Below, piece after piece: positions 30,901-53,930 of a stretch of 64,000 nucleotides of DNA. Made by a program: the position numbers and the translations under genes. Within the stretch, counting starts at the first letter, position 1, and the number at the start of each line of letters is the position of its first letter. The notes under the pieces were generated by a model that was not told where the DNA came from, made no database searches, and saw only the letters and a list, made by a program, of their open reading frames with translations. Origin of the DNA: Marsupella aquatica (Eukaryota > Plantae > Marchantiophyta); contig OZ316891.1 in NCBI GenBank assembly GCA_973895155.1, positions 13,175,037-13,239,036 of the forward strand, in the 5' to 3' direction.

Positions 30901-33253
30901 AGCTCCGGCGTCGCTGACTCCGACGCCGAGCTCCCTTATGGTCCAGGCCCGGATAGGCCATCCGGGGAGGACTTAGCATGGGGAGACTTGTGGGCAATGA
31001 GACGTGGCACTAGCAAGGCAAGGGGCCAAGCTGGGGACACACACTAAGGACTTGAACTAGCCTATGGCTGGTTGGGTCAAGGGGAAATGGGCCGGGCTCA
31101 AGGATGGCCGTCCGGACCGTCCGGACCGTCAGATGGGCTTTGAGTTCTGAGGGCTTGGGAGTGAGCTCCTCTTGGCCCAAGGCCAATGGAGTTGATGCCA
31201 TTGGCAACGGATGCTTGGGGCGCAAGTTGCGGCCCGATCCGGGTTGGGCCAGTCGGGGGCCCCGAGCGGCGATCAGACCTGAGGGCCTAGGCATGAGCAC
31301 TAGGTCGGCCCGGTCACAACCGGCTAAGGCACTCCACTTGGGGATGCCTATCAAGAAAGTTATGGGCGTTGCCAGTTGGTGGCCGCGCCCGTTACGCGCG
31401 ATGGGATCCGGGTTGGGGGCCAAATGTTTAGGGACCAAAGCTGGTCCGGGGGTGGCAGGTCTCCAGAAGCATATATGAGGGGAGTGGTGTCTCCCTGGGG
31501 GCTAAGGGCGAGCCGAAGTCGTGAGCCGCAGCGGTCGCGACACTAAGGGAACCCACCAAACGGAAATGGTGATATCTTCTCAACGGGAAGTTTGTTGGAG
31601 GACTTCTTAGGTGCGTTGGAAAGCTCTTGAGGAGGGCTACGCCCTCCTAAGCTCAGCTGGGTCTGGGGGTGCCATGGGTTCTCGTGGTTTGCGGGTGTTA
31701 GCTCCCCCGCTTGCCAAATCCTGCCAAACAGCAGCCAAGCCGCGTTCAACCTCTCAAGGGAGCTTGCGTTGGGGAGGCAAGGCCAAGTAGGTATGGAGGC
31801 TGAGTCCCAAGGGCGTTCAGTCCCTAGACCATCAGTGGGGCGAACCGGGAGCGGTTGTTAGAGTCGGGGCCATTCTGGTCCCGGCGTGTTGAGACAAGTT
31901 TGGGACAAGCTACGCTATTTGGGCCATGAGCATGTCCTGAGGTCAGGGCGGTCAGTTGGTGATGGATAGGTACGAGGGGGAACCCGGGCCGCGCCCAAGG
32001 AAGGAGTTGTCCTAGACGGACAGTGGGCGTGGGTTCTGGTTCTGGCTTATGGCATCGAGAGGACCTATCGTTGACCTATTTACCAACGTCTGTTGAGCTT
32101 GAGTTAGGATGCTAGACTTGGCCAGTTCTAGATCCGGAGGGGTTACTTACCGAGGTGCTTTGTTGCTTGTGCAGATAGTGAGGACCATTGAGTAGCAGTC
32201 GTGTAGGTGAGCAAGTACGGCTTCGTATGGGAGGGGCCGCAGGTGGTGCTAGAGGCACTTGGATGCTTGCTCGAGGTATTCCGTGGAGGCGTTCGGGCAC
32301 CAAGGGCACTTAGGCGCAAGTGCTGGGATTGGTGAGGGCACTGGGTGGCAAGGTCCACCACTCACTAGTAGAAACCGGGGTGTTTTATGACTAAGTGTTA
32401 CGACTGCCCATGACTCCTTGTGACTAAAGTTTGGGGGGTATCAAGCCAGTCGTAATTTTGACATAGAGTCTTATTTAAAGTGACTGAAATCGATTGGTCA
32501 TTTATGTGACTAGGGTTTAAGACATATTTTGTGACTAATAATGACCACATCCGTACTTGGGCATTTTGGGATTAGGAGAAGGTGTAGTCTTATAAATGAC
32601 TGAAAAGTAGTCATTTGTATGACTCAAAATGAGGTATGAATTAGTCACAAAGAGTCAGTGAGGAAGAGTAGCCTTTCGCATATATGACTGGTGCTATGGT
32701 TCAATATCGGAACACAGGTGACTGATTATGACTACCTGGTCTTAAAAGTTTAGAGTATATGGGCACATTAGTGACCGATGATGACTACAGATGACTAATC
32801 ATTCTTAAAAATCTTAAGATTGGGCTAGACTGGTTGGTCTTATTGGGGACCACTTGATATCTTAATGACCCAAAATGACTCATTAGTCTAGTTCACGATT
32901 GCATTCTTTGACCCTTTTGGTCAAAGATTTTGACCAAAAGGGTGAGGCAATTGCAGCCTGCACATAGTACTAGAACCATGACTAATAGACAACTGAAGCA
33001 TAGAAGCATACATTCAAGCACTCAAGCAAACAAGTACACAAGTCTTACATGAAAACATGAGAGACAACATAGTTCTATTAGAATCTTAGAACTCATATTA
33101 ACTATTGAACACACATGCATAATTTCGTACAAACAAAGTTGTCACAACATGATCAGTGGATGATCCAGTGAATCTCAATTCAACTCTGCATTATGAAATA
33201 TCTCGGTAACATTTGGCACCATGGATGCAGTTGTTTGTAAGTTTAGGCTAAAA

Positions 33254-36200
33254 CTACAAACCACACATTTCAGGTGTCCCTATATATTCTGTTGGCCACA
33301 ACACCAAAGAGTTCAAAGCATCTGCAATAGTTGTCTATGGCGGGTCATCATTCAAATTAGGAACTGGCAAAGGGGTCTTTGGCTTCACAAGCTTTGTCAA
33401 CAACACTACAGAATACCCTGTTGGTACTTCTTTGCAATGGAATGTAATCTGCTCTGGGCGCAATTTTCCATACCCTACACACAACTCATTTTGCTCTGGT
33501 GAGAACAATACATACTCAGGATGTGCCTGAGTCTTCAATTCTGCATCAGCTTTACGCTTCTTTGCCGCTGCCACTCTACCACTTGCCCTGGCCCGACCCT
33601 TCACCTTCCGAATAGGTCTCCCAACAGCTGAAAGCTCTACTTCTACTCCACCGTCTGTGGTCACACCCTGTATGTCACCTGCCTGTGATGGAATTTGGGT
33701 CTCCACCTGGCCCTTTGTTTCGCATCCATTCTCACAGGCTTTGGCAACTTCTATGAACTCTTCATATGGATCCAAACTGGGGGTATTCAGTACATTGGTA
33801 ACCTCTGCAATAACAAAATAGCAAGTCAACACCCTATCAACATTTTTGCCTTATCTCCAATCATGGAAACATATAACAAAACACATTTTTTGTGTCATCT
33901 CCAATCATGGAAACATATGAGAAACCTTACCTTCCATTGTTGGGGCCATGGTACCCTCCACATCCCTTTCTGTGGGCTCCACTTCCATTTGCTGTTCAAT
34001 ATTACCCTCTGGATTCATCAAATTGGAGTAATGTGGCAGGTCTCTAGAGCCTCCATTCCATATTGCATTCATTATACATTTGTATTGGTCTTCTTGCACA
34101 CGAATAAGCTTCTGAACATCTTCCTTTAAAGCAGTCAACTCACTTGCCATTTCACTCAATTTCACAGTCACATCATTCTCATGAGACTCCATACATTTCA
34201 CACAATCTGATAAATTGCTAAGAGAACATGATCCACCTCCCTGCAAACACATATGTCCAACAGAGTCAATCCATTACACCTGAAAAAGAATATATGGTCC
34301 CATTGTTCATGCAAACTATGGAATGTGGAGCGAAAAAAACACTATCTGGTATGAGTACTTACTTGGTTTGAAGGATCACTCTGGCCAGATTTTTGCTTCT
34401 GTTTTCTTGCTTCAGCTCTCACCTCTTCTTTTGTAGGGGACTGTCCATTTTGTGCCTTCTGCATACAGTGTAAATGCACACATTATTTGCTCGAACACAA
34501 AAAAACTCAAATACACTGTAGAAGCTAGGTCTGCCAATCCAACGATTATTCTTACCAGCTGCTCTACTATTGGAGCATTCCCTTTCCTTCCTGTCAAGTT
34601 AAGGTTCTGAACGTTGCCACGTGCATATGCCATCTGGGAACTCTTACTCTTGCCGGATTCACTCAAGAAGTGATGGACTAGCTTGCTCCATTGAAGAGGA
34701 TCTGTCAATGGGGGAGCAGGCATTCTTTGGTCCTCTCCACCTTCTTGAAACAACACGTGCAATCTCCACCTCTCATTCTTCAGAATTGTCTTTGCATGAG
34801 CCTGAAGACACTCCATGGCTACTCCATCCGGATGGCCCACATATTTCCATTTTGCGGCTACATTGTCAACAACTTGTTGCCAATCCGCTGGATGCTGCTG
34901 CACAAAATTCACCACACTCAAATCCAGCCATCGCAATATTTCACCTTTCAAGTCAGCCAACCAATGATTCTTCCCTGCAGATGCACTGTTCACCCAACGG
35001 TTGCTCCCAATCTCCACTACTCCTTTCTTGGTTCTGTCAGGTCCTGCATTGCTTTCTGTGGTACTGCTTGGTGTGACAGGTTTAGGATTCGCTAGAACTT
35101 TTGTACTACCCTTTAGTGGACTTATAATGCCCCCTGCATCATCCCACATCCATGTGACATCATACAATAGTAACATCAATACCTTTGTATATGTCAAATA
35201 GTGGATACCAATTGCAATTGTTTATTGTTTCATAAGTGTAACTTACCAGATGCTTTGGCGACACTCTGTGGATAAGAGGCAGGCTCAACTACCTGTACAT
35301 CTTCCCCACCAGCCAACCAATCAGGCTCTGGCCATTGCTCAGAACCATAGGCTACAGTTGTCTCTTGTCCTGCCTCTACTTCAGGTTCATAGTAAACCTC
35401 CTTGTCAGTTACTCCCCAATCAGGATGGGCAGAATCTGCAGTCACATAATTAAGCACTTTAATTAGGTCTTTAACATCACACTAGCATACCCTTTATTTC
35501 CAAAGTAATTTACATAAATGCCAGAATTGAAGGGCAATCCCTACTCACATCTCCAATCGTCTCTTGTTGCTCCATACTGCTCAGTATGTTGTGTTGGTCT
35601 ACCTTGGCCCCGTGTAATGTGTGCTGGTGGTGGACCCGTAACATACACAACAGTGTGCCCAGCAGGTGGTGGTGGTCCATACCCATCCACTTGTGGGGCT
35701 GCTCTCCCCTGAGAGGGTGCACTGTGTGTTGGTGGTGCTCCATACACCACAGTGTACCCCTCGCTGCGTGGGGTTGCTCTAACCTGACCTGTGCTGTGGG
35801 TATGTGTTGTTGCTCTACTTGCAAAGGAGGGTGGGATGTGCCCACCATGTGGTGCAGCTCCATACACAACAGTGTGACCACCTACACCAACAGTTGTTGT
35901 TCCATACCCACTGCTCTGTTGGGTTTTACCTGGAGGTGGAGGTGGAGGTGGTATGTGCCCAGCACGCCCCACTGGTCCGGACCCACGTGCAATGTAATGC
36001 ACTGTGCTTCGCCCTCCAGATGTTGTTGTACTGTGCCCACGGCCCATACCCCGAGTAGCAAGTCCACCTCTCTTAGCCTGCAAGAACATATGTGCAAGGA
36101 CAATAAACTTAAAAGAAGTATCTTCCTCTGACTTGCCACACTCACATGAGCCAAACATATCACTACTGTGATACACTACTTCAACACTTCATAATTACCA

Positions 36201-36470
36201 CAATTTTCTTGGGCTCCTCGACAGTACGCTTGCCCTGCCCATATTCTTCATCATCTGCATCGGGCTCCTCCTCTGGATAGTACTCTACATCATCAAATTC
36301 CTTATGGTTTTCACCGGACCCAACATCTTGCCCATCATCTGCAGAATCTGCCATCGATGGAATGTCCTTCACTGCTAGTCTCTCACTGCGTCACCGAGGT
36401 CCACTTGCACTGTCACTAATGCTTTGCCTAGCCCTTCTGTGCACTACACTTCTCCTGTCTGGGAGCCTGC
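33254..36470 (-). pseudogene. tnpA-like: TnpA-like (Ptta/En/Spm-type) multi-exon gene with a premature stop at 33335-33337; 5' boundary approximate
   Basis: The exon at about 34556-35140 encodes WSKLVHHFLSESGKSKSSQMAYARGNVQNLNLTGRKG, which is Transposase_24-like. The terminal exon reads FHCKEVPTGYSVVLL...PLPVPNLNDDPP*TTIADALNSLVLWP, a Tnp1-like C-terminal motif that continues past the TAG to a stop at 33254-33256. Upstream exons are acidic and Gly/Pro-rich. Confidence 0.72.
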
Positions 36471-36718
36471 AAGCCATCCAAAAGCAACATCCATTGAACA
36501 ACTCTAGTAAACATAGCTACATTCATTCCAATTAATGAGCAAAGTCTGGATAGGTTCTGTGGATGATAATTGTTCCCTTACAAAGCGGAAAATCCCTGTC
36601 TGAGCTCAGCTCCCAAAGCTGCCAGCCTCTCATCAACATATGCTGCACGTATCATGGCTTGCTTTTCAGACTCACTCATCTCATCATCATCTTCTTCCAT
36701 CCTATTCAATGACAAACA

Positions 36719-39700
36719 TTATTGCATACGCATGGTGTCAGGCTCAGCCTCTACAAATGGCTCCTCACCCTCCCAAGCATCCACCCGTGTTAGAGGAACA
36801 TACTCTGTGCTTGTCTGAACAGTACCAACGTCTCCAGTACGTGGTTGTTCAAATGCACTATGTCTATCTAAATGAAACTCTAGCTTTGAGCCTTCTACCC
36901 TACGATTTCTGGGCTGCTTATGACACACTACCCTCCAACCTAGGTTCTCTTCCACATCCAAGAAGAAGGCCTGCTCCACCTGACTGGGATACACAAAAGG
37001 CTGCTCCCATTCGGGCAACTTGGACTTGAAATTGGCAAGCAGAAAGCCATCCCGGTCTCTTTTCATACTGGCCCTGTTACCACGCCACACTTGTCTTACC
37101 CATTCACCCTTCATCAAAATTACAGGAGTGGATGTGGCTCCATAGTCAAGAAGCCAGATATCACTTAGTTCTCCTACATACCCCATCTGCAACACTCCAC
37201 TACTTTCATCAGGGCTCTCATGCTGAAATACACAAATGAGCCCACAATCATATGTTACCCTGGAAGAAGTTGTTTCATCTCTCACTCTATAGTGATTGCC
37301 ATATGCTGCCATCCGTTTGTAAGACTTTACCAGCAACCGTGGAGGATTGGAGAGGAGATAGACATCTACATCCATATTAGGATGGCTTGCATGATGCTCT
37401 CGAACTGTGCATCTCAGCCATTCTGACATGCATGGGAATGTGGTAGACGTGCTTGATTGAATAGCCTTCTGTGCCTCATACTCCCTACACATATAAGTGC
37501 ATGGATTTAGCAATCAGAGTACACATTCTATACATATCTGCAATTTAGAAACCAAGGGCAGCAAAGAAAATTGAAAACAAGTTACATACAGGGAGACCAA
37601 AGTAGGTACTCACTCCAGCCAGGGTTGCATTGCATCAGTGTTTTCCAGAACGTACTGATGAGCCAAGTCTCTAATTTCGATGGTCAGCTTCACTGTGGTT
37701 GCAGCACCTTGTAGGACTTCCCCAGACACCCCTTCTTCTTCATCAGAATTCCATACTCGCCTTGTCACATGCTCGTAATCTGCTAGGTACTCTGTGATGT
37801 AGCCCAGAGTTTCATCTTTTATATAACCCCGAGCCATACTTGCCTCTGGCCTATAGTAAGATCTCACATGACCCTTCATCAACTTCATGTACCGCTCCAG
37901 GGGGTACAACCAACATGCTGTCACCGGCCCGTACTGGTCTATTTCTTCCACAACATGGATGAGCAGATGAGTCATTACATCAAAGAATGCAGGCGGGAAA
38001 TATATTTCAAGATCACACAACAATAGTGCCACATCTTTCTTCAATTGGGGAAACTGTGCAGCATCCCACACCTTCAGACAAACTCTGCGGAACACATCAC
38101 TCAGACGCAGTATAACTTTACGCACAGGCTCTTGCATGAGGCCCCTCAGGCACAATGGCAGGACTTGTTGCATCATGACATGGTAGTCATGGGTTTTCAT
38201 ACTACCAAATTGGAATTTGTTATCCTTCACATGCCTCTTGAATGCACTAGCATAATCTGTGGGAGCTCGGAGTGAACTCAGCCTTGATAAAAAGGTCTGC
38301 CACTCTGTGTCTGTGCAACAATATGGTGCTTGGTACTTCAAAAACACGTTTGCCCTGCTCTGGTGTGATGTAAGCCAAAGGTGGGGTCGAATTCCCCTGT
38401 CCTGTAGATCCATACGTACAGAGCCCGTGTCCTTTTCTCCACTCAAAAATCGGAGTAGACTCTCGCATATGTTCTTCTCTATGTGCATAACATCAATATT
38501 ATGTTTGTTTGGATCAAACTCCTGCAACTCCGAAACATCAAGCAGTGAGCAAATCTCAATCTTCATAATACATACATACTACTTCATACAATCTAACAAC
38601 TAAATTGACTGAATCACATATATGGGTTGTTGGGGAGAGGAGCTTACTCGCCAATACTCCAGCTGCAAGTCCAAAATGGACTGTCGTTTCACACCATACA
38701 ACCTTGCAGGATCCCGTACTCCATCCTCTGCTCCTCCATCTGCATCATATTGTGCCTTGGCAGCCCCCCAAGAACTTATTTGCTCCTTCTTCACTCGAGG
38801 TGGGGGACTGCGGAGCTCCGTGCGCTTGTTAAAATGTGCTATAAGATTGGGTCTACGTCTGTAAGGGTGATCAGAGGGCAGAAATCGACGGTGACCAAGG
38901 TATTTGATACACTTCAAGGACTTTGAATAGTCACTTGTCACATGGGGGCCACATCTTGTGCAAGCTAAATATCCTTTCCCAACCTGGCCTGCAATCATGC
39001 TATGGGCAGGGTAATCTGCAATAGTCAACATTACAATAGCTCTAAGCAAGAATGGATTGGCTTCACCAATCCTCTGCAGCATATCATATGTGAGCACTCC
39101 AGTGTACCATAGCTTTCTCAGTTCCTCTACTAGAGGAGCGAGATACACATCTATATTGGCTGCAACAGCACTGTCTGGCCCTGGAATCAACAATGCCAAC
39201 ATTACAAAGAACCGCTTTGTAGTCAACCATGGGGGAAGGTTGTAATTCAAAAGGGTTACAGGCCAACAATAGTACGCATTGTTCTTCTCGCCAAATGGGT
39301 TCACCCCATCCAATGATAGCCCAAGCCTAACATTCCTTCTCTCCCTAGCAAACTCAGGATACGCATCATCAATCAACTTCCATTGCTTTGAATCTCCAGC
39401 ATGGCGTTGTAGCCCATCTCGACTTTTGTTCTTAGCTGTCCATGTCATCAACTCTGATATGGCACGGCTCCTGAACATTCTCTGCAGTCTGGGAATTATA
39501 GGAAAGTGACGGAGCACTTTTGTAGGTTGCTTGGACTTCCCATTATTCCGGTACCTGTGCTTCCCACATGTAGGGCATGTCAACTTCTTCTCATGTTCGT
39601 TTCTGAAAAGAACATGCCCATCAGGACAGACATGGATTGACTCATAGTTCAGCCCAAGTTTTGATATCAGTCTCTTTGCCTCGTACATGTTTTTTGGCAC

Positions 39701-40465
39701 TAGATTACCTCCTGGCATCACTGTTTTCTACAAGAAGGCCAGAACCTCGGACACAAAGATGTTTGGCACATTGTGGTTCCCACAAATATTCAGAAACATT
39801 AGCACAAATGCTAATTTGGAACAATTGCTTCCTGGGAACAGCGGATTGAAGGCCTCTTGAACTTCGGTTGGGGAGCCAAACATGGTGTCCACTCCAGCTG
39901 CAGCCTGTTGCCCAATCTCGAACTCATCTAAAGACTCGTGGTCATCACCCGGTGCAGTCTCAAACTCTTCTGCATCTTCCATGTCCTCCCGCATTGCATC
40001 CATGTCCTGGAAAATATCATGCACCATTTGCTGAACATTGATCCCTTCGTCTGCAGGCTGCTGAAGGACTTCGGACCCACCCAGTTGAGTCATCACATCT
40101 GCCAACCCACCAGTGAAGAACTGGTCTCGCCTTGCACTATTTGCATTCTCAAAGTCAGCCCTCCATTCCTCATCCGAAGAATCAGCCTCATTCGGATCGT
40201 TTGTAACACGCCAACGAGGGTGTCTCCCATGAATTGCCAAGTGCCCATGAATCTGCCTCAAGACTCTGGTATGGGAGCCATTGCATTGAGTGCAAGGACA
40301 TCTCATTCGTGAACTTGGACCTGACCGTGCCACTTTGGCCTGTTCCCGATTCCAGAGCTTCTGGTCGTGTTGGGAAACCCTCATTGGATGATGTAGAGGC
40401 AACCTGGCAGATGTTGGATGGGTCCAAGGGGGAGGGTGACCTATGGACACTCTTCTAGACTCCAT
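36719..40465 (-). pseudogene. tnpD: CACTA TnpD DDE transposase (Transposase_21, DUF4218, DUF4216) with an in-frame TAG at 39728-39730; exons ~38648-40465, ~37614-38521, ~36719-37484
   Basis: Motifs in order: RCPCTQC..H, IHVCPDGHVLF..CPTCG, LSLDGVNPF, YNLPPW, IADYPAHSMIAG, DVMHIEKN, FPPAFFDVMTHLLIH, WLYPLERYMKLMK..RPEASMARGY, YVGELSDIWLLDY, EQPFVYPSQVEQAFF. ORFs 39728-40465 and 38600-39721 are in the same frame, separated by TTG-TAG-AAA. Confidence 0.93.
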
Positions 40466-40930
40466 CTTAGAGTTCAGAACACAGGCACTCAGATTTAATT
40501 GTCATTTCATTATGAAAGTGGAAAATACATTTCTTGTATAGCTGTGTTCCGATGTTCACACAATCTACCAAAACATATGACATGATACAGTGTAATAAAT
40601 CATGCATAGACTTTCTACAACCACCAAAAAACAAACAAGAAAGGTTCCTGAATTGTGTACCTATTCTCAGGTTACACTGTAACAAAATTCCTAACTGTCT
40701 CAGGGTGTCACCTCCTTCGCTGTCCTCACTTATACTGCCTCAGTCTGCAATGGCCAACCAAGCACGTACATCCATGACCATATCAGAGTCCAATCACCTA
40801 TAGTCATAGACAAACGTGCTTGGCGTGAGAGCAGTATGAGATCTCCTCACGTTATTACCAGAGTTCATCTGGATACCCACCCTGTTCTCGATGGTAGTCA
40901 CACCTGAGGTACACTGGCATGTACATCAGG

Positions 40931-41461
40931 TCATATATCAAGGAGTATGCCCTGGGCATACCAGGGTGGGGTTCGATCTATGCCTACAAGAAGTGGTTGT
41001 AATGCCCTCCACTGAGGGGAGCTAGCTACCAAGTCCCTCCATTGTGTGCTAATTAGTCTATATTTGCAAATGTCTTGTGCGTTTGACCACATAAGAATTC
41101 TGGGCCACACATCCGACAGCATTATATCATCTGGCAAACCAGGCAACAAGGAAGTCCCCACAACATTATGCTCTTCTATTTCATCTGCTGAAAAATAAGA
41201 TTCATCGTCTCTTGCATCCTCAGGCGGTGCCAAAATATGTTTCAACACCAACCCATGCAGGAGAGTCCAAACAGTGGCCAACCATGTGGCAACCCACAAG
41301 AGGAGCCTACATAGCGTCGGGTGATGTAGGAAAGGCAACATACCCACCAAAGTCTGCCGCCAAGATTTGAGCCCACCCCCAGTAAGTTTACAGTGACACC
41401 CCCAGGCAGCAGGAAACAACAATCCGCCAATAGTAAAATAAGTCCAACTGCGACCAACCAT
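40931..41461 (-). CDS. CACTA cargo: F-box-motif protein with a hydrophobic N-terminus (176 aa)
   Basis: SLLPGLPDDIMLSDVWPRI...ICKYRLISTQWRDLVASS matches the plant F-box consensus (LPGLPDD...RxVSxxWRxL). It is preceded by a hydrophobic segment and an acidic stretch. ATG at 41461, open frame. Confidence 0.62.
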   Translation of the reverse strand: MVGRSWTYFTIGGLLFPAAWGCHCKLTGGGLKSWRQTLVGMLPFLHHPTLCRLLLWVATWLATVWTLLHGLVLKHILAPPEDARDDESYFSADEIEEHNVVGTSLLPGLPDDIMLSDVWPRILMWSNAQDICKYRLISTQWRDLVASSPQWRALQPLLVGIDRTPPWYAQGILLDI

Positions 41462-41552
41462 AACAAGCTACGTTAGTTCAAATATCACATTTATTTAAAA
41501 GATGTGATTTGTACAAAAAGCTTGTCTCAAAACTGATGCTACTACGTACTCC

Positions 41553-42425
41553 TCACTCTGATTCAGAATCGCTAATAACCCCTTCCTCACTTGTTGTCAC
41601 ATAGTTTTCACTGTGAGGATCCTGACCCTTCCGTGGCCAGGCCTCAAAAAGATCATAGTCCATTGGGTTTTGACGCTTCCCAGCTGCTACTGATTCCACA
41701 AGCCAAGCATATGAAACCACAAACACATTATGGGACATGACATAAAAGCGAATGTCACCCTTCCCAAACTTGCGGCAGGCTTTGGGATATGACTTAGTAA
41801 TGACATGAGTGGTGTCCTCTGTTATATTCTCCTCCACTATCCCACCTAGGTCAAGCACTGTGGACTTGTACACTTTGCACTTAACCTCTCCAATTCCCGC
41901 CTCCACAAAAACCATGCTCAGCCCTTTCAAAATGGGGGTTGGTTGCTTCATCTCCTCAGCCAACATACTCTTCAGCCTTCTTGAGCTTTGTCCTGTGTTG
42001 AGTACAGGTCCATATTGGACATCAGCAAGCCGTGCCTTTACTTCCCAGACTTCTTGTTCAGCCCAAGCTGATGCAGTAGCTTCTTCATCCTCCCACAATT
42101 CATATTGCTCAGTATCCTGTACAATCTGATGTGCTATGGAATCTGTGATCCAAGAGGCCTCAACTACTTTTAGGCCTCGCTCAGTAATTGCAGAATTCAT
42201 GTAGGACCATGACCACTTCTTTATCACTGATAGCCATGTCCCTGCAACAACATGTGTAGTCTCTGGAGTGATGTCCTGAAGTACAGTGCCATGGAGCTCA
42301 GAGAATCGTTTCTGTACAGTTGGCCAATGCACTTTGGTCAACCCATGCTGGCCATGGACCAAAATGGCTCTGACCCCTGTAAACACTGCTGGGTGGTCAA
42401 ACTTCCTACGTTTCCCAGGCTCCAT
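41553..42425 (-). CDS. CACTA cargo: tandem BRCT-domain protein (~290 aa)
   Basis: Two repeats carry BRCT hallmarks: VFTGV...HGTV...ETTHVVA...VVEASWITDSI...Y and ILKGL...LGGIV...DTTHVIT...VVSYAWLVESV...Y. There is an NLS-like KRRK at the N-terminus and an acidic Ser-rich C-terminus. First ATG at 42425. Confidence 0.82.
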   Translation of the reverse strand: MEPGKRRKFDHPAVFTGVRAILVHGQHGLTKVHWPTVQKRFSELHGTVLQDITPETTHVVAGTWLSVIKKWSWSYMNSAITERGLKVVEASWITDSIAHQIVQDTEQYELWEDEEATASAWAEQEVWEVKARLADVQYGPVLNTGQSSRRLKSMLAEEMKQPTPILKGLSMVFVEAGIGEVKCKVYKSTVLDLGGIVEENITEDTTHVITKSYPKACRKFGKGDIRFYVMSHNVFVVSYAWLVESVAAGKRQNPMDYDLFEAWPRKGQDPHSENYVTTSEEGVISDSESE

Positions 42426-43009
42426 GTACACACACCCTATGTGATGAGAGTGAATATTGGAAGAATGGGTTCACCTGCCAATAGAAGGACACCAAAATTC
42501 CTGCTTTTTAAGTTGATCCGGTCCACTGTTGCTCAAGTCCAATTTTGATAGGTACAGGGGATATGTGAACAATAAGTACTAGACCTACACCGATGTAGGA
42601 CATTGTTTGAGTATATACTAGGAAATCCATATCAAAGGTGAAATGAAGTGCAACCAACTTGTCATGGCCGCACATACATATTTTTTTGTAAAGGAGGATA
42701 CATTCAATGACAAACTTATAGGGCAATTTGATTAATTGCATGCCTGATGCTTACAACTTTGAAGTCCTGTTTTAATTTAGCAGTCTGATGAGAGTGTTTG
42801 TGAAAATGACCACTCAGTCTAAATACTTCCAAGAAGGCTTGTAAGGATAAGTTTTTATAGGCATGTACCCAGCCAATAACGCCAGGGCACAGGATAAGTG
42901 CTCCCTGTATAAACTCGCCTACCCAAGTCCTGTTCAAAATTGGAATCTCTGCAATCTCCAAAAATAGTACATCCACATTAGGTGCCCTATGCATGTACAA
43001 TGTTCAGCT

Positions 43010-43690
43010 TCACAGCCAAGATATGTGATCTCTCACAGGAGTGCGCGAGGTAGGATCAATGGCATGGCGATGACAATAAAATATCCATCGATCAACACCA
43101 TGTGCAGAGTGATCATAGATTTCCCTGTCACAAGCATAACCCTGTGCTTGACAATCTTTCAAGCAATGATAGTGCCACATAGTGGGACACCTAGCACAGT
43201 GGACTATGTCAGCCCAGTACTCATCATCATGCTCACAACATGCCTTGCACCTATGAAGTGGGCAAGCTATGGCATGAGCAGGCAAACACTCAAAACATAA
43301 AAACCTTACACAAAAACGGTCTGGACATTTCCTAACATTCGGTGCAGCATCAACAGAGCCCTCATAGGACCCCAACTTCCCACACTGTGCACACTTAGCC
43401 TGCTTCTCCAAACAATCAGTGCACATCCAGTCTCCCTGGTGTGTTGACGGGAGGCCCACCCCTGGACAGTTGTTTTCTGCAGCAAGGTCAGACTCCGGGT
43501 TGAGGTGGAAATGCCTCATGCAAGGGCCCTCACAGATGACCAAGCTCCCACCATCGTCACAAATGGCACAACAATGAGCTGCCTTCTGGAAAATCTGACT
43601 TGCAGAGAAGTTAGTAACATGTGGCCCAGGTACACCTGTGTTGCTCACCTCTATCACATGCTTTTTCGCTGGAATTTTGGGGCGTGCCAT
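43010..43690 (-). CDS. CACTA cargo: EDM2-type atypical PHD-finger protein (226 aa) with an H3-tail-like N-terminus
   Basis: CAICDDGGSLVICEGPCMRHFH...WMCTDC...CAQCGKLGS...ACPLHRCKAC...CARCPTMWHYHCL...IFYCHRHAIDPTSRTPVRDHI follows the Cys/His spacing and TPVRDH ending of the EDM2/NSD-type PHD array, as recalled. The first ATG (43690) follows a pyrimidine-rich tag| acceptor. Confidence 0.85.
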   Translation of the reverse strand: MARPKIPAKKHVIEVSNTGVPGPHVTNFSASQIFQKAAHCCAICDDGGSLVICEGPCMRHFHLNPESDLAAENNCPGVGLPSTHQGDWMCTDCLEKQAKCAQCGKLGSYEGSVDAAPNVRKCPDRFCVRFLCFECLPAHAIACPLHRCKACCEHDDEYWADIVHCARCPTMWHYHCLKDCQAQGYACDREIYDHSAHGVDRWIFYCHRHAIDPTSRTPVRDHISWL

Positions 43691-44441
43691 ACCTACGCAT
43701 GAGACAGACAGTACAATTAAGTAGACGGTACAGGCAATACATTTTGGCAGACTGTACAGACAATGTATTTTAGCAGACTTCACAGAAAGTAAAATTTAGC
43801 ATTTAAGGTACAAAGGCATTAACTACTGCAATGAATTGCAATGCCCACACAAGGATGCAGAGCAAACATACTTTTGGTTTGTTGAGCCCACACACAAAAC
43901 TGAACCCCTAGTACAATTGCTCCACCAACACCTCAAATTCGTGGATGTGATTCACCAAAAAAGATCTCCAACAACATTTCATGCATTTGAATCACATACA
44001 ATAGTCATCACATGAAAAATAGGCATTTTTCCAACAAGATTGGGATCAAGCAGTGTGATGAGGGTTGTACTTTATACATCCTATATAGGCTATGATAGTG
44101 AGACAAATAAGTCATACGTGTAAGGGAAGGGATGTTTGCAGGTTATCGCATGGCCCATTAATTCTGTCATAGAATGTTACAATGTTGGCCAAGTTAAAGT
44201 AGACATTAAAGCAGTCTTTGAATGGAGAATTTAAAGAGAGCTTGCCTAATTCTTACATTAGAATATTCCACTTAGTGCAGCCAAAATAGGATAAGTTATA
44301 TACTCTGGACCCTAAACACTTTACCCAAAATTGCTCATACTTCAAAATTTTAAATTAATATCCTCGGTGCTTAAGTCAGAGCATTAAGTGTGAGGTCATT
44401 CCACTCTGGTCTGTGCATACGGGGTGACAAACTGTGCTCCT

Positions 44442-45194
44442 CTACAGCGTGTGATCCAAACATGTGTAGACACCAAAAGCACCAGCCCTGGGGAATCACT
44501 TAGAGTAAAACCCCTAAAACACGTGAGAACAAACCAATGAAATTTGAAAAATAAATTAAAAAATAAATTCAATTAAAATTACCCTTGTACCCTTAATTAT
44601 ATGGCTTTGACACATTTTTAAATACCTTACTGAATATAAAAACTAATATTTTTTCCAAAATTGGATTTTTAAACGCCTTTACTACAAATTTTTGATTATA
44701 ATTATTATGCCAACAAGATTAAAAAGAACCTTCATTTGTTCGCACCCCGTTCTAATAATCCAACGAGTGATTCCCCAGGGAGCACCAGTGGTGGGGTCTG
44801 GGAGGCCAGGACAAGTGACATCGCCAGGCACACTGCAAGATGGTGAGTGGTTCCAGATGATACATTGTGCTCTATGCAAAAATCGACATCCAAGAGAACG
44901 GTCATCCAACTCTGGCCAAGATGCCCGACAGGCAGGACAGTCATATTGGCAACTGTGTACACACCCTTGGGCCCTAATTTGTGGCGGGTCATGTACGAGA
45001 GACAAAAATACCAAGGATGTTGTGAAGGGTGGAGAAGTAGGTACAGGCTGGCTGTAGTTATTCTTGGCAACAACAGGGTACTCAAAGTACCATGCAGACT
45101 GGGCAGGAAGGATCCCAAGTCTGACATACTCAAGGCGCAACCTCTCTGCCTTGCGTGCAAGCCACACATGTTCAGCATTGTGGGTGCTCACCAT
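44442..45194 (-). pseudogene. Possible fourth CACTA cargo ORF, Cys/His-rich, interrupted by the MITE
   Basis: The ORF from ATG 45194 has clustered Cys/His (GCVHSCQYDCPAC...GCRFLHRAQC..WNHSPSC...TC). Removing the MITE and one TSD continues the frame as ...TTGAFGVYTCLDHTL*. No family recognised. Confidence 0.4.
44486..44780. mobile_element. 295-bp MITE with 15-bp TIRs and an 8-bp TSD, nested in the CACTA
   Basis: TIRs CCCTGGGGAATCACT (44486-44500) and AGTGATTCCCCAGGG (44766-44780). TSD AGCACCAG at 44478-44485 and 44781-44788. The interior is AT-rich. Confidence 0.9.
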
Positions 45195-48100
45195 AACTGT
45201 TGCTTTTGTTCAGATGTCTTGTGTTCACGTCCTCCAACGTCCTTCGATCAGCAAGGTCAGTAGGAGCTATAATTGCCTCTCCAACAACAACCAGAAGAGA
45301 GACTAATCAGTTCCCACTCACTGTGTCATTCCCTTGGTTCCAACTAGAGGTCATAGTATAAACATAGCATGAAACACTCCTAATGAACAATGTTGCAAAC
45401 TACAATATCCAGAAAGACTGAAAATCTCACCCTGCAGTGAGCAGCAGAGAGGTAGTTCACTGCTTGCAAGAGTGAACTGAGCAGGAGTGTAGGCAAACTG
45501 GCATTCAGTTGGCACAACTATATTGTGCATCAGCACAAAAGCTCTTATAAACATGATATGCATGAAACTCGTCGATAAAATAGAAGGAAACTAAAGAGTG
45601 GATGCAAAACAAAGTAAATTACAGCACAGGTTGGCACAGGAAGTGGCCCGCAGCACTCAGTCAAACTTCATAACCAAAGTACAGACTGTGTTCACAATAA
45701 GGAGCTTCCTAAAAAAGAGGCCACCAAAAGGGGGTCGCAGAAAGGTCACTTGACAAAATGAAGATGGGAATGAAAAAACTGCCTCCAAGCTCAATACATG
45801 TGACCAAATATATATTCAAAGAGGATCCCCAACAGAGCAGAAGACAGTATGATCCCAATTACTATGTTCTATCCATAACTACATGATCTGAAAAATGTTA
45901 TGAGCAGACACGAAGAAGCCAGCAAAACAGAGGAAACAGAGCAAAACAGAGCATGGATCGAGAAAATGAACAACATCTAGTTCTTACGCAAGAAACTCAA
46001 TGACAGCAAACAAATTCACTAGCCCCAGGAAGTGAAAAGCAAATGAGTACCAAGCCAACCAACTAAGACTGACTATGAAATGCAATGAAACCTGAGTGAA
46101 ACAATTGTTCACACATGCACGGGACATTGGAGGTTGAATACAACAGTCACCGCCAAGAATGTATGCATGAAACAGACATGAAGATATCGAATATGTATAT
46201 GCATTCCAGACTTTCATGCCAGACAGTGGCGAAAGTTAAAATGAACTAGTTTTAACTTTATGACTCTCAGAATGAAAATATTTTATTTCAGAATTATATT
46301 CTATTTCAGAATTGGTTCAACTCTGTGGATTGTGAACTGTCCCACTTGGAATTCAACTATTTGGGCTATCTAAGAATGCAGTTCAAAGGACATATAGTGC
46401 AAGACAGTTAGAGATCATGTCTTCATTCCGACGTCCAATTGGACATTTTATGTCACAAACTGCGCAAGCAATGAAGTCCATGGAATTCTCTCAAAAATGC
46501 AGCTTTTGTTGTTGGTAAAAGCAACTACGAGTTTCCTATTGAGTGCCCCCGACGCACAATACTACCAGAGGCCCACTTTAGACTGCGATGGCTATCATTA
46601 CTTATTGGGAACTCGGATGCATATATATTGAAATGCTTCGCAGAGTGTTTCGACCACAAAAAACCTAACATCAATCTCAACATTCAGTCCCGTCTCAGAA
46701 TTGATTTAGAGGAGGCTTAGCATTCAGTACAGTGTCAACAATCAGTCTTGTCTTCACATTCAACATCCGATTGCAAGGGGCTTCGATGAAAGCACAAGAT
46801 AGAGCTATACAAGAAGAGATAGAGGAAGGCACCTGTGTGTTCGGAGAAAATATGAAGCTCCAAAGACCACCCTAAACTCTCCAAGATGTAGGGTCGATGT
46901 AGGTTGCAGGTAGAAGCTCACAAGCCAAATATTGGGCAAATGTGGGCTCCAACTATACTGTAGTGTGTCGTGGCTTTGCTCTTGCCTCCTATAGCTTAGA
47001 ATGGGCCGGGGTTACCAAACAACTGTTATTCTATTGAAATTGGCTACCGAGAACTCTTGTCTTTCTGCACTCAAACAACACCAAAATGAAGTCTTAGTAC
47101 CAGTGAGACCAAGAACACAAAAGGAAGGGGCACATTCAAAGACAAAGTGATTCATACCACATTCAAAGACAAAGCGGAAAGAATTGGAAAAACCAGAGTG
47201 AAAGAATTGCGAATGAATATCTGTTCACACTGTATGCACAGGATCTTACATTTAGGGTGACTCTATTTGCAAAAGCCATAAAACAGAGAAACAGAGAAAC
47301 AGAGACCAGAAAACAGAGAAACAAATTAAGCATGCATCGCTAAAACGTAAAAACTTCATAGTGTATCATTTCTCTAAACAAAGGGCCACATACTCTGGTC
47401 TCTACAGAGAAAGCAAATCCACCTACGATGAGAAGATTGGTACAGAACAGGAGAGAAAAGGGAGACCAGAACAAATATTTAAAATCAGAACAAGAAGACT
47501 GGCAATTTAAGGAACCCCAGGGAGCCTATTGCATTTGAATCACATACAGGACCCTAGCATACTCATAGTGGGGCACTAGATACTGGGCAAACTCAAGGTA
47601 ATGGTCAGAATGAAACCAGAAAGGTCTTGAAGTTGCCAGGTCCCGCCTCGTTCCTCTCGCACTTTGCAGAAAACAAGATGCAAAAAACTAACCTATAGCT
47701 CCAACCGGCTGTAGTTGACTGAGCTGCAGCAAGTTGTGAAGACAGGTCGTCCCCAGCGGCACCTTGTCCCTGCCTTTAGCTCGTCCTTCACCGCAAGTCT
47801 TTGAGCTGCTCAACAAACACAGCAGCTCAGCACCACAACTAATAGATGGCTAAATAATGGGATCATGTGCAAAGGGAAATGAGCCATGAAGCGAAGGGAA
47901 GCGATCAGTTCCGGCACCCAACAGCTGAAATGACCTCACTGACAGTTGGCATCTATGCAGATAGATCGAGGTCTTGTCACTAAGTTAGACACAATTTATG
48001 GTGTGAGTGTGAGTGTGAGTGTGAGTGTGAGGTTCTAGAGAAGGCTAAAGGACCTCTGCAATGCAAAATGTGGTGCGAATGGAGCCGCGAGGTGAACAAT

Positions 48101-48852
48101 AAGTTGGTGATAAAACCGGGCAGCATACATAACACCAGACCAAAGACGCAAATGACCAAACCGAAAGACGCTTTCACCAACAATGCATATTCAGGACATG
48201 AGTGAATGGAAAGAAGCAAGAGAGATACAAGGATTACAAAAAAAGACTAGGCCCTCGTCTGTCCAGACTTCTGTAGGACTCCACTAACTCCATTGTCCTT
48301 CTCAGATCCCCAAGAAGTCCATGAAGCAACGAAGAACCTGGGCAATGTGACTTAAGGACAGTAGCAACAGTACATACACATAATAATGAAAGGCTGGTTT
48401 GGGGCAGCACAAGCAAGCAATGCGACCCCCTTTCACTCACCGTCCCACGACCAATGATAACGGATGAAAAACTGAACCTGAAATGTAGGTCGCGCGTTCG
48501 ACCTGAAAGTGGTCAGCTCCAAGGCTACCTACCTACCCCTTCGTTGCTCCGCAGCTGAGCTCAATGAAGTATAGAAAGTGGGTGAGGATCCCGTCCTAGT
48601 TCAGCTCCTGTGCCCTCATGGCATTTGAAACAAAAAGAGCCAAAACCAATGCAGAACCTCAGTAGGATGAACGACTCCCCGACAGAGACTAACTGTCCCT
48701 TCTCTCTGGCAGCTCACAAATCCACAATTGCAATGGTTCTGCTCAGTCAGCCAAGAACACCCTAAAATCTATGAAAACAACGGGCGACAGAGGAGTTTGT
48801 AAGTGATTCTCACTTGAAATTCCGCCAGCTGAATCTTCCTTTTTAGAAGGTC

Positions 48853-49420
48853 TGCTAACTCCGCAGAATGACTCTCGGATGATTAGAGCAATGTAAGTGG
48901 CAGAGCTCACTCCCTCTGAATGTCTCTACTCATCGAAGAGTAGAGCTCCTCCCACCTTCGACCTCCCCAACTCCCCAAAGGTCAGTGGCATATGCGCAGT
49001 CACCTCCTTCGCACACCGCAATTGACCGAGAATCCCTCCTCCTAAAGCGCACAATGTTATGCCCAAGTGCGATCAGGTGGCAGAGTCGACAACAAATTGA
49101 GAAAGAGTAACTCGGGAGCGAAGTGATTCAGAGCAGGTGGCTCTTGCTAACTCCGCAGAATGACTAGTAGATGATTAGGGCAGCGTAAGGGCAGAGCTCA
49201 CTCCATCTGAATGTCTCTACTCATCATCGAGTAAAGCTTGTCCCACCTTCGACCTCCCCAACTCCCCAAAGGTCAGTGGCATCTGCGCAAACGAAGCGGG
49301 AGCACACCGCAATCGGTTCAATTCCCTCCTCCGAAAGCGCAAAATGTGATGCCCGAGCACGATCAGGTGGCAGAATCAACAGCAGCGAAGTCTTCGAGCA
49401 GGTGGCTCTTGCTTTTCCCT
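48853..49420. repeat. ~293-bp diverged tandem duplication in the CACTA 5' non-coding region
   Basis: tgctaactccgcagaatgact...cccaccttcgacctccccaactccccaaaggtcagtggca...gatcaggtggcaga occurs at about 48853 and about 49146. Confidence 0.85.
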
Positions 49421-52400
49421 CGCAAAAACTAGCAGTCGACACTAAACTGCACACCAGCAGTCACTCCTTGGATCCCTTCCCGTTGATCGGCATTTTTACC
49501 CTAACAAAAGTTCACACATGTTAGACGTCACTTAACACTTAGCACAAAACGGTCAGTAAGACCTAGTAAGTGTGCATGAGATTTTGTTTGTGGCCCTTTT
49601 AGTTTGGTGATTTGGGTATTGGTTATAAAAACACCCAATGTCACCGGGAGTAAGACAACACCCACCCTTATACAAGAATGCCTAAATTTGATTAAACCTT
49701 ACAATACCCATTTGATCACAATTAATTAAATAATGAGACCACATATTTAGCGAGCAGGCCTAGGTAGCATAGGGTACTTTAGGGCCGGGCCCTCCATTGT
49801 GTGGCTGTTTGGCCTATAGGGTATAGGCCAGGAATACAGATCGACAGGTCGGAGTTTAGCTCCGGCCCAATTGTTCACTTCAAGGTTTAATTAGTTAATT
49901 AGGTCGGGCCCGGGTTACACCGTACGTCCATACCGTGCACCATAATATGTGTTGGCTATATAGTAACCGAACTCATCCTTATCCTTATTACAACCCTAAA
50001 CATACTAATAGGGATAAAAGAAGGTAAGTATGACCCCAAATTATGCCAAATCCAAATGGTAACATGACACATATTAGGTGCACAATATGTAATGGTCAGT
50101 TTAGTGACTAAAATGGCTTGCCTTCCTTCCCGCCCTTCCTAATTGGTCATAGGAATAAGACAGCGACCAAAAAGTGAACAGTTGTATATGTTTTGGAGTC
50201 TTATGTTGACTTAAGAATGACTCAGAAGTCGTATATAGTCACATAAATATGACTGAAGTGTGGGCTGCGCACAATGGTGGTCAAGCCTGTCATAAGTGGT
50301 CGGGTCACAAAACACCCCGGTTTCTACTAGTGACTGTAATTCACAAACAATCAATCAAAAATGGTAGAAACACGATTTCTCCTGGAATGTGTAAGCGAAA
50401 ACCATCAAAAAACTCAATTCCTCCACATTCAACCTTCCGTTTGATAAACCAAAAAGATCATCTCAATCAGATCAGTCTCCTCTATCTTTCAAGCATTCTC
50501 TTTTGTACAAGCACACACCAAGACCACTGGGAGTCTCAAACCCATTGTTACCCCCAGGTTGCAGAAATTTGATTTTACTTCATCACACACACATTCCTTG
50601 GATGAACATGGGGGTCCACGGATTAATTATTAAGTTCCAAACTAAGTATATAACTCAATAGAAAAGAGAGTCAATTTATTTCAATGCTTTTTAAGCTAAA
50701 TTTAAAGCTGCAATGCACCAAATCTGTACTTTGCCATCAAAGTCTACCCTTCATAACCTACTCCCTAGCAGAGTGAAGCCATAGGTAAACAAACTGATAA
50801 CAGAAAATTTGATATTTAGACTATGCTTGCATGGGGAGTCTGGGTATAAGGGGGCCTTCCTATGCATACGGGTGGGTCTTATCAAAGTGCTTTTGTGTTC
50901 GCCTTCTCTTGGAGCAAATCTCTTCCCTCCAAAAAGGACCATGTTGATTATAGCTCTCCAGTGCCTGAAAAGTTGTTGCTTGTCATTGTTCTCATGAAAT
51001 AGTGCTAGTGCCAGTCTCAAGAAAGAAAAGCTATATAGGATTGGTAGCTTAGAAGTCTTCACATGTGCTTGCAAACACTTATTGTTGCTACAAAGACAGA
51101 GTAGGAAAATTAACAACGGGCTCTTGAAACAAACAATTTGTGTTCAAAATGTACTTTGACTAGTTCAATTATCTTTAATCTTGATTGAGAGTCATTAGAT
51201 CTAAGAAAAATTCTCTTACTAGTCATCACATCTGAGAAAGTTTTTGTAGTTATCAATAGATTTGTGGTTCCAAACCTAGCCCAAACTTAGATTAGATATA
51301 GTCTGTTGGTGGTGAGGAGATCTCAATCTTTCACAATCACCACAAGACAGTGATGATATAGTGTCCAATTGAGTTCTTTGGTGAGGATGCTCATGACTGT
51401 GTAAGTATGAATAGCTTGACAGAGTAAGAGTGATCATGGTTCTCCAACAGAAGAGTCTACTTAGAAGGGTACTAAGCAAATCAATAACTATAAGGCCATG
51501 GAATTGAAGCTTGTAAGTACTCTTTACAGAGCCACCAACATTGGTTGCTGCTGATCTCTTGTTGAATTGTCATGGTAAAAATGGAAAGATTTGAGCATTA
51601 TGCCACCTAAGCATGACTCACGGTTTTGAGAGTTTGTAATGTATCTAAAGTTTGAAAAATGGGTATGAGTTTCTAGAGACCATGATTGAATGTCAAGTGT
51701 CAATATCTGATTGGCTCGACTAACTACCATAACTTGCATTACAAATGCTGAAATTATTTAACAATAATCAAAGATTTCCATAAAAGTAGTCCAACCTATA
51801 TTTCAGTTGGGTTCAGCAAAATGATGGATCAAATGTGAGCTGGAGATGGAATAAAAAATGCATGACATATATTTTTACGTCAAATAGGTCAATCGTTTAC
51901 AGTGAAGATAGATAATATTCATAGTTTCTTTATTAATAGCATATGAATATTTCTATTAGACTAGGATTGCACCAAATATCCTAAAATGTACACTAAGTTA
52001 ATTTGCCAAGGCCATGGATTGCTCAGTCTCTTCCACTAGATCGACTTGAATAGACCACTCTCACTACCGCTACCATTCCTCTTGTCATCTTGCTATCTCA
52101 GTGAATTCATGGAAGTTGACTCCGCTACATTTGTATGGGGAGGTTCTTCTAAATCAAAGTCAGTAGTACAATTATCCCACTTCACTACAAAAGGATAAGC
52201 CTTTAGTGTTAATTAAAGAATAATGTCATTTATTGGGAGAGTGAGTGTTAGAGGTGGTGTTTGATCTCTGGCCCTTGTTGTGGTCTTATCCATTATTTAT
52301 ATGCATGATCGGGTGCATGACTGGCAACTTGTTATTTCTGCTAATTAAAGAGCACAAGCAATGTCCTCACAAGGCTTTCTAGGTTCATGTGCAGTTTGAA

Positions 52401-52514: not shown

Positions 52515-53584
52515 TATTAGGAATTGACTCGAGTTCCCGACTATAGTGTTGTGGGTAGTTTCAATGATGTATGCAATGACCTGCACTAGACTTGACATTG
52601 CCCACGCTGTTAGCATTTTGAGTAGATTTATGGCAAACCTTGGTAAACTTCATTGGGAAGCAGTGAAGTGGGTTTTGCGATATCTGAAAGGTACTTTAGA
52701 TTGTGGGATTCTATTTGATGGTAAAGCAGACTCTACATTAGAGTTGGGAGGTTTTGTAGATTCAGATTATGCTAGTAACTTGGATAACAGGAAGTCTACT
52801 ACAGGCTATGTGTTTATGTTGGGTGGAGGTTGTACCAGCTGGAAGTCATCAACTCAATCCTGTGTTGCGTTGTCTACTACTGAGGCTGAGTACATGGCTG
52901 CCTGCGAGGCAACCAAGGAGCTGATCTAGCTACGGAGATTGGTGAGTGATTTGGGTCTTTTACCTGAAAGACCGGTGCTGCTGTGTGATAGTCAAAGTGC
53001 TTTGCATCTAGCTAAGAACCCTGTGTTCCACGCTAGGACAAAGCACATTGATATTTGTTATCACTTCATCCGTGAGGTAATTGAGACGAAGCAGATGTTT
53101 CTGGAGAAGGTGGCTTCAGAGGAGAATGCGGCAGATATGCTTACCAAAGTTTTACCTACCAGTAGCTTTAGTCATTGTGTGGATATTATTAATGTTAGGG
53201 CCAAACCGGAGACTATGTAGATATGTTACTTAGTTACATATTGTTTATCACCTGACTCATTGTGTGAACTGGAGTCAAGGTGGAGATTGTTAGGAATTGA
53301 CTCGAGTTCCCGACTATAGTTAGTTTGGCCTTACTAGGGTTAATTGAACCTTGGTTAGTTTAGGATAAGATCCACTTATTTAGGCCCACACATCTTAGTC
53401 CCCCTTGGGGGGTATAGGTTGGAGGGAGAGCATTCTCTCCCTCATTCTTCACATGTTCAATCTCATGAGCTATGGATCCTTCAGGAGTTTCTCCATGATC
53501 GTGGTGTCTTGTTGGTGTAGTGTGAGATTGAGTGCTCTCATGTTCCGCATTGCTGTCTAGTCTGGAGCTGACGGTTTTCCTACA
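52515..53584 (+). mobile_element. Internally deleted Ty1/Copia LTR retrotransposon: 33-bp 5' LTR stub, RT end/RNase H, PPT and a complete 297-bp 3' LTR (53288-53584)
   Basis: Copia RT/RNase H motifs: MYAMTCTRLDIAHAVS, DSDYA..RKSTTGY, ALSTTEAEY, HARTKHID, ADMLTK, with a stop at about 52927. PPT caaggtggagat precedes the LTR TGTTAGGAA...TTCCTACA. The same LTR start occurs at 52515-52547. The 5-bp TSD CCATC is at 52510-52514 and 53585-53589. Confidence 0.92.
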
Positions 53585-53592
53585 CCATCTTG

Positions 53593-53930
53593 CTCGGGGG
53601 GGGGTCACTTCCACGGACGTGGCACATCACGTGCGACAAAGTATAGGCCATTTAAATGGGTGTGGCGGAAGATTTCCAAAGTTTGGTGGAAGAACACATA
53701 CTTAGGGCATGTTTTATTGACTGGTCGACTTTAAAAAACACATAGGACTATTTAATTGTAAAATATACTTTATTTAAAGTTTTTAGGGGTTTTTTAATAA
53801 AAAATATCAAAATTTAAAGAAAGAAAGGGTTTTGCAAAAAAATAGTTTTCACTTATAAGTTAGGGGGGTCAAACCCTAAACCATCACACGTGATGTATGA
53901 CGCTCCATATAGTGACCCCCCCCCCCCGAG
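53593..53930. mobile_element. 338-bp MITE (G-tract TIR family, copy 1)
   Basis: TIRs CTCG(G)nTCACT and AGTGAC(C)nGAG. 8-bp TSD CCATCTTG at 53585-53592 and 53931-53938. Clearly homologous to 55989-56322. Confidence 0.92.

Follow-up and report, generated by a model that had tools for sequence, protein, structure and literature searches.

Among the nearest described counterparts of the locus reported here are the canonical CACTA/En-Spm transposons, which are recognized by CACTA ends, a 3-bp target duplication, subterminal repeats, the domain order of the transposase TnpD, and a TnpA-like gene behind TnpD; for Arabidopsis EN/SPM families, the TnpD and TnpA genes are reported to lie head-to-tail (PMC13547354). 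During the analysis of a 64,000-nucleotide stretch of Marsupella aquatica DNA (Marchantiophyta; assembly GCA_973895155.1, contig OZ316891.1, positions 13,175,037 to 13,239,036 of the forward strand; hereafter designated the window, with positions counted from its first letter), we found an element that has the ends, duplication, subterminal repeats, and TnpD domains in common with the canonical ones, carries a putative TnpA-like gene at the expected place, and differs from them in that four further genes (hereafter the cargo) stand ahead of TnpD. They encode a small Cys/His protein, an EDM2-type PHD-finger module, a pair of BRCT domains, and an F-box protein. Sequence comparisons indicate that the PHD, BRCT, and Cys/His genes are very probably selected accessory genes, a reading held with less assurance for the F-box gene.

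Several other described systems share part of this organization. A survey covering 1007 plant genomes lists PHD, BRCT, or F-box in 11 rows of its Table S6, all of which were examined. Among 775 clusters, the CACTA accessory proteins include a single RTT107_BRCT_5 row and none with PHD or F-box, such rows being confined to Mutator-like elements (MULEs) in that table, and non-vascular lineages account for only 0.9% of the clusters of the survey (PMC12973397). The giant Plavaka elements of red algae resemble the window element as 17–19-kb members of the EnSpm group with a fixed three-gene cassette (PAG1–3), some of it chromatin-related, which is reported also from other transposon types. Two of the three accessory genes, however, encode enzymes; Plavaka carries an adenine methylase, SET, and a 2OG oxygenase (10.1101/2025.02.11.637652), whereas the three identifiable proteins of the window cargo are non-enzymatic and belong to a Transposase_21-type land-plant CACTA. 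VANDAL MULEs with VANB and VANC are likewise multi-gene plant DNA transposons with host-derived accessory proteins, but belong to another superfamily, and the anti-silencing action of VANC has been shown experimentally, whereas for the window cargo it would be a putative role. VANC is described as targeting tandem repeats in non-coding parts (PMC10398659), and the window element has a tandem repeat before the PHD gene; the Pfam matches of the cargo suggest no kinship with VANC, whose sequence itself was not compared. Pack-CACTA elements and soybean Tgm-Express1 also hold host-derived coding pieces inside CACTA ends, with splice sites ahead of the pieces, but these are non-autonomous fragment carriers, whereas the window element has whole conserved open reading frames (ORFs) beside its own TnpD exons. 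EDM2, of the ASI1-AIPP1-EDM2 complex, shares the whole PHD-finger module including its closing motif; in contrast, the window PHD protein is without the RFD and about 850 C-terminal residues, is encoded in a single exon, has altered residues before its first Cys, and lies inside a transposon. In the literature covered, from which Repbase and most subscription papers are absent, a CACTA element with this gene set was described in none of the titles and abstracts found, and the cargo combination is apparently undescribed, as a variant of accessory-gene-bearing CACTA elements.

The 17,970-bp element is a member of the CACTA/EnSpm superfamily, with CACTA termini as inverted repeats, a 3-bp duplication, subterminal repeats, and the TnpD domain set. 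Its boundaries agree with the original prediction, an earlier reading of the same DNA from its letters, which had claimed terminal inverted repeats and an ACT target duplication: the longest inverted repeat in the window pairs 32359–32391 with 50304–50336 (33 nt, 94%), CACTAG stands at 32363 and, inverted, at 50332, and ACT flanks both ends (32360–32362 and 50333–50335). RTGACY subterminal repeats reach 33 per kb at one end and 16 per kb at the other, whereas the interior of the element and its surroundings have about 2 per kb. Read along the minus strand, about 4 kb of non-coding DNA is followed by Cys/His, PHD, BRCT, F-box, TnpD, and the TnpA-like gene. The predicted layout of four ORFs head-to-tail, directly ahead of TnpD, stood, whereas the prediction that three of them are clean did not, the F-box ORF being frameshifted; the claim that they lack introns holds for the ORFs as read, with leader introns likely from splice-like sites. 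The named domains were all recovered by Pfam, namely PHD-1st_NSD in the PHD ORF (E 9e-6), two BRCT stretches in the BRCT ORF (E 6e-13), and an F-box motif at residues 109–152 (E 1e-4; 22.3 bits against a cut-off of 20.5, with 19.3 bits for its relative). Stand-alone modules without a catalytic part had been proposed for each recognizable ORF, which describes the PHD, BRCT, and F-box proteins, whereas the Cys/His protein, for which no family was found, is not recognizable as an interaction module. The window copy is damaged, with an in-frame TAG in TnpD (39728–39730), the frameshift in the F-box gene, and, as predicted, an insertion of a miniature inverted-repeat transposable element (MITE) in the Cys/His gene, leaving PHD and BRCT as the only clean cargo genes.

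For the PHD ORF, the alignment profile matches NSD2 at 9e-11, and residues 40–225 align with residues 241–446 of a grass-like protein of 1305 aa (L001; 29%, E 1e-18). This protein carries an RFD at 21–150 in addition to the PHD, and we take it to be EDM2-type from this architecture. Relatives of the PHD, BRCT, and F-box proteins were searched among near-length proteins only. All five PHD matches are stand-alone proteins of 217–245 aa, 38–81% identical, with the same start and the same closing motif, and in the family alignment 24 of 41 Cys/His positions are invariant, compared with 32 of 176 others. In the tree, six short PHD proteins lie on one side of a 100/100 branch and three grass EDM2-type rows lie apart, no host gene of the same lineage being included. 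When metagenomes were scanned with the PHD alignment, 11 loci (27–46% alike) emerged from 221 candidate stretches; their long ORFs were host EDM2-type or generic PHD proteins, and inspection by eye showed no transposase among them. Separately, the grass-like loci L002–L007 (e.g., L004:541-1662 and L003:203-1003) encode proteins of 216–380 aa that are almost only the EDM2-type PHD module; they cluster with full-length L001, apart from the transposon proteins, and are perhaps an independent PHD-only branch. In one sequencing run (X7), summed contig depth was about 1,900–6,200 over parts of the PHD gene versus mostly below 35 over neighbouring genes, so that close PHD relatives seem to occur outside the cargo block in the organism concerned (organism D).

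The two BRCT repeats arose as an internal duplication (23% repeat-to-repeat, E 4e-11), and two protein clusters of relatives (294–295 aa, 55–60% identical) share the start and end of the ORF. The pair weakly matches Rtt107, BRCA1, and ligase 4, and generic BRCT clusters below 0.9 in the Atlas; the predicted model was unusable (predicted local distance difference test (pLDDT), 36). Plant polymerase lambda, whose BRCT the pair may resemble, was not among the matches listed.

The frame of the Cys/His gene, with the MITE set aside, encodes 149 aa and ends at 44442, and its relatives have 150 aa. Six of nine search matches are relatives of similar length (28–58% identical), the other three (P0013, P0015, and P0016) having been dropped as low-complexity repeats. 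The family has the invariant core CxHSCxxxCxxCR, with NH and a late Cys also conserved, and the protein is likely zinc-binding, judged from these residues. No Pfam family was common to nine members, Foldseek, with the predicted model (pLDDT 65), gave no hit with an E of 0.001 or lower, the best Z among 48,161 chains in the fold comparison was 4.6, and the Atlas gave no usable match; the alignment also had zero matches among viral contigs. The proteins thus appear to form a small family without family or fold assignment, although these searches do not establish a new fold. Reading the protein as a degenerate PHD was rejected, because its conserved Cys and His residues are spaced differently. 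The MITE, presumably hAT-like by a rule on the length of its 8-bp duplication, is absent from contigs of other copies, which join 44477/44478 to 44782–44784 in five runs (X1, X3, X5, X6, and X7).

The F-box gene is the weakest member of the cargo, being broken here, with few synonymous changes and a single relative. This relative (P0008, 46% identical) begins at Met41 of the window ORF and extends 21 aa beyond the window stop; the corresponding tail lies in another window frame, ending at 40855, which indicates that the window copy is frameshifted. Over 40906–41353, run X2 has a contig that is near-identical to the window yet 4 nt shorter. No second, substrate-binding domain was found by Pfam in either protein, and peak hydropathy in a membrane anchor check was 1.67 and 1.26.

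Evidence on selection came from relatives and from other copies of the element. The ten relatives looked up are all Logan-only, on contigs shorter than 3 kb. Parts of the cargo stretch were present in seven runs (X1–X7; contigs of unrecorded or guessed-DNA kind) from four organisms and five studies, no run holding half of the words of the stretch and none listed for it being of RNA. For the whole element, 30 of 30 bins were covered in all four runs compared, and for the cargo block 30, 29, 26, and again 30 of 30 bins were covered in four runs from four organisms. The window element thus belongs to a land-plant CACTA family with many copies, of which it is a damaged one. The TIR pattern had zero matches in prokaryote genomes. 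Among the codon changes displayed, the synonymous share was 4/5 for BRCT, 3/4 for PHD, 4/7 for Cys/His, and 1/7 for F-box, where 21–27% was expected; thus, 11 of 16 were synonymous in BRCT, PHD, and Cys/His together (p 2e-4 to 6e-4), and 12 of 23 with the F-box included (p 0.003 to 0.009). None of the 12 displayed indels (of 46) fell inside the ORFs, which make up 59% of the stretch (six clusters, p 0.005). Moreover, observed/expected ratios of CpG were lowest for the cargo (0.21–0.29), higher for TnpD (0.37), and highest for a host exon (0.58), the depletion in the cargo being as expected from long residence in methylated DNA. Collectively, the stand-alone relatives, the spread over runs, the synonymous excess, the indels outside ORFs, and the loss of CpG argue for selected accessory genes. 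The preference of the original prediction for a selected toolkit over random Pack-CACTA fragments is consistent with these data, with same-length relatives down to 28–38% identity and copies in four organisms; it had named uniqueness of the cargo to this copy as a sign to the contrary, and the finding was the opposite, cargo parts occurring in seven runs and stand-alone relatives existing for each gene.

The Cys/His-PHD-BRCT block seems to be common to two CACTA families, as judged from matching of contig depth, which is not equal to copy number. In run X2, contigs at depth 213–253 are 96–99% alike over TnpA, TnpD, and F-box, and a set at depth 1,620–1,910 matches TnpD in patches only, whereas over 41382–43397 contigs at depth 1,640–1,980 are 86–97% alike, spacers included. 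Contigs bridging BRCT and the start of the F-box gene were X2 record 2 and X5 record 11, the latter matching BRCT at 95% and then diverging across F-box. The simplest interpretation of these patterns is a recent exchange that left the block in two families whose transposases are only distantly alike. Each of the four cargo ATGs has YAG 2–12 nt upstream, compared with 34% of all ATGs (p 0.013, under a rule set after looking); the spacers are 751, 584, 91–211, and 389 nt, with less than 100 nt from the BRCT stop to the F-box acceptor. Together with donor-like sites at 48440 and 45430 in the 5' region, this arrangement would suit one promoter with alternative acceptors. En/Spm is reported to yield TnpA and TnpD through alternative splicing (PMC13547354).

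From the domains, the four cargo proteins may be host-facing, enzyme-free adaptors or decoys that allow expression and movement despite host silencing, a proposal to which we give about an even chance. In this scheme, transcription would start from a single promoter close to the right end and give a long pre-mRNA, with splicing to the acceptor ahead of each gene and cleavage at alternative poly(A) sites; TnpD and TnpA would then depend on read-through over about 9 kb of methylated DNA. Transposase genes at the far end of such a long methylated unit could make direct use of the EDM2 pathway, as helper or competitor. In Arabidopsis, EDM2 is reported to bind H3K9me2-marked transposon chromatin and to suppress early polyadenylation (PMC7529245), raising COPIA4 and lowering Mu1 transcripts (PMC3632883). 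The EDM2-derived PHD module might accordingly bind the heterochromatic nucleosomes of the element and either recruit the EDM2 complex of the host or compete with it; the BRCT pair would keep end-joining proteins at excision and insertion breaks, the F-box would bind SKP1, and the Cys/His protein could be a zinc-binding specificity or bridging factor. A bolder version, which we regard as rather unlikely as a whole, makes the cargo an alternatively spliced counter-defence unit of stripped host modules, in which the PHD redirects the heterochromatin read-through pathway of the host to the long transcript of the element and the block is a portable cassette between CACTA families.

Several points weigh against this picture. 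Every step of the proposed mechanism is derived from domain names. Ahead of its first Cys, the PHD carries A-H-C in place of the E-D-E of AIRE, and in the grass EDM2-type protein a D stands there; a 17-aa stretch of the EDM2-type protein is also missing from the PHD ORF. Acidic residues before the first Cys take part in gripping histone H3, so that, with this stretch missing as well, the transposon PHD may read another mark or ligand. Some distant relatives may be host genes, since the proteins come without genomic context. The synonymous counts are drawn from small variant samples (the best-supported 40 of 1906 and 40 of 427 rows) and are not a ratio of nonsynonymous to synonymous rates (dN/dS), and the F-box was separated from the other three genes after looking; with synonymous changes in the minority of those displayed and its frame broken here, it is also without a recognized substrate-binding domain. 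Finally, no contig spans both cargo and TnpD in any run.

The evidence for selection would also fit a cargo that serves transposition itself, the PHD steering insertion by chromatin state (e.g., to repeats or heterochromatin), BRCT aiding integration, and the others acting as transpososome cofactors like MURB or TnpA. Binding of accessory proteins by transposases is reported for MULE, CACTA, and Harbinger (PMC12973397), and the element lies between two high-depth repeats (bins 32000–32623 and 50096–50700), although only a single insertion site was seen. The F-box, however, suits protein turnover more than targeting, and cargo beside transposases less than 80% alike suits host-facing proteins over partners of one transposase; we consider this role rather unlikely, though the likeliest of the alternatives. 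Should the cargo act in target choice, this would be the first case in the superfamily, within the literature covered, of a DNA transposon guided by a PHD module on its own. The passenger block, in which Cys/His-PHD-BRCT spreads selfishly between CACTA families by recombination, draws on the same X2 depth sets and X5 record 11, where the block stands beside a differing transposase or F-box; own ends or a duplication around it were not seen, the depth matching is indirect, and useful accessory genes are equally expected to exchange, which leaves this explanation decidedly improbable.

Purifying selection by itself is silent on the beneficiary, so the cargo might instead be kept for the benefit of the host, with the transposon as vehicle only, or its host-like sequence might shield the element from silencing. 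Camouflage through captured genes is discussed in the literature (PMC13317346), and the X7 depth of PHD far above its neighbours suggests that PHD occurs outside the block as well. Nevertheless, with about 29% protein identity to the EDM2-type protein found, the cargo is far too diverged to act as small-RNA camouflage, barring a much more similar gene in the host itself; the CpG loss of the cargo matches that of the transposase genes, and the window copy has lost two of four cargo genes while otherwise near-identical to other copies; this explanation seems improbable. Least probable of all is an ordinary Pack-CACTA, with recent host fragments in neutral decay. In its favour, the window copy has defects in TnpD and in two of the four cargo genes, and the fragments captured by soybean Tgm-Express1 are reported to retain splice sites and to be spliced randomly (PMC1947982). 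Against it stand whole ORFs without internal introns, starts and stops conserved in relatives down to 28–38%, the synonymous excess, the position of indels, and the split of the six short PHD proteins from the three grass EDM2-type rows at 100/100. Counter-defence by plant transposons is shown in few cases, chiefly VANC, and broad anti-silencing adaptations are called rare (PMC12973397). If the host-facing reading is true, the element would represent a second, independently built counter-defence design, and the first found to borrow from EDM2, a host reader of transposon chromatin; its four small genes, including the approximately 150-aa Cys/His family, are separable for study.

Outside the cargo, the 5' region is inferred to contain the promoter and leader exons and includes an imperfect direct repeat of about 290 bp (48853–49384). 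The frames of the TnpA-like gene had no match in the Pfam search, and we assume the likeness to TnpA from the position behind TnpD and a motif only. A repetitive Gly/Pro/His-rich frame of 205 aa (35544–36158), partly open in two minus-strand frames, lies between TnpD and the TnpA core and may be a TnpA exon. An ORF of 92 aa between the PHD and BRCT genes was rejected as a gene, since a common variant at 42907 is a stop. Coordinates are collected in Table 1.

Table 1 Features of the CACTA element and its cargo (positions in the window)
Feature	Position	Strand	Basis or remark
Whole CACTA (EnSpm) element, 17,970 bp	32363..50332	-	Terminal inverted repeats, ends, ACT duplication; all genes on minus strand
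Left terminal inverted repeat	32363..32391	+	29 nt, 96.6% to right end; then ~600 bp RTGACY-rich
TnpA-like gene, multi-exon, core exon 34415-35221	33400..36390	-	Open frames at expected place
TnpD transposase exons	36719..40465	-	Pfam Transpos_assoc, Transposase_21, DUF4218, DUF4216
F-box cargo gene 4, likely start 41341 (Met41 of ORF 40931-41461)	40855..41461	-	Frameshift near 40935, tail in other frame to 40855
BRCT cargo gene 3, two BRCT domains and acidic tail, 290 aa, intact	41553..42425	-	Pfam, relatives
92-aa ORF between PHD and BRCT genes	42716..42994	-	No Pfam match
PHD cargo gene 2, EDM2/NSD-type PHD-finger module alone, 226 aa, intact	43010..43690	-	Pfam, relatives, tree
26-bp tandem repeat, 3.8 copies	43704..43801	.	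Directly upstream of acceptor-like site of PHD gene
Cys/His cargo gene 1, 149 aa without insertion	44442..45194	-	Six relatives; MITE-interrupted
295-bp MITE in Cys/His gene	44486..44780	.	Inverted ends, 8-bp duplication (44478-44485, 44781-44788)
T-rich non-coding 5' region	45300..49500	-	No ATG-started ORF of at least 90 aa on minus strand
Right terminal inverted repeat	50304..50332	-	Subterminal repeats inward of repeat

The host genes in the window, recognized by Pfam (BES1_N, EPF, and S1 plus EF-Ts) and pointing to a land plant, are a BES1/BZR1 factor gene (1887–4614), an EPF-family peptide gene (17746–18027), and a single-frame gene for a 1162-aa protein with S1 and double EF-Ts (24510–27998), the linker of which is an acidic Ala/Glu/Val repeat of 126-nt and 30–33-nt units. 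A GC-rich (about 60%) high-depth repeat at 30781–32362, for which no second copy was found in the window, abuts the left side of the element, and many differing contig ends fall at 32140 and 32362; the insertion site of the CACTA element coincides with, or adjoins, the end of another repeat. To the right, an open frame at 52564–52929 had no Pfam match at E 0.01; by a motif it resembles the reverse transcriptase/RNase H end of Copia, and we take it to be a retrotransposon remnant. A small element whose inverted ends are G-run/C-run is present in two related copies (90–96%), at 53596–53927 and 56041–56316, and is probably another MITE.

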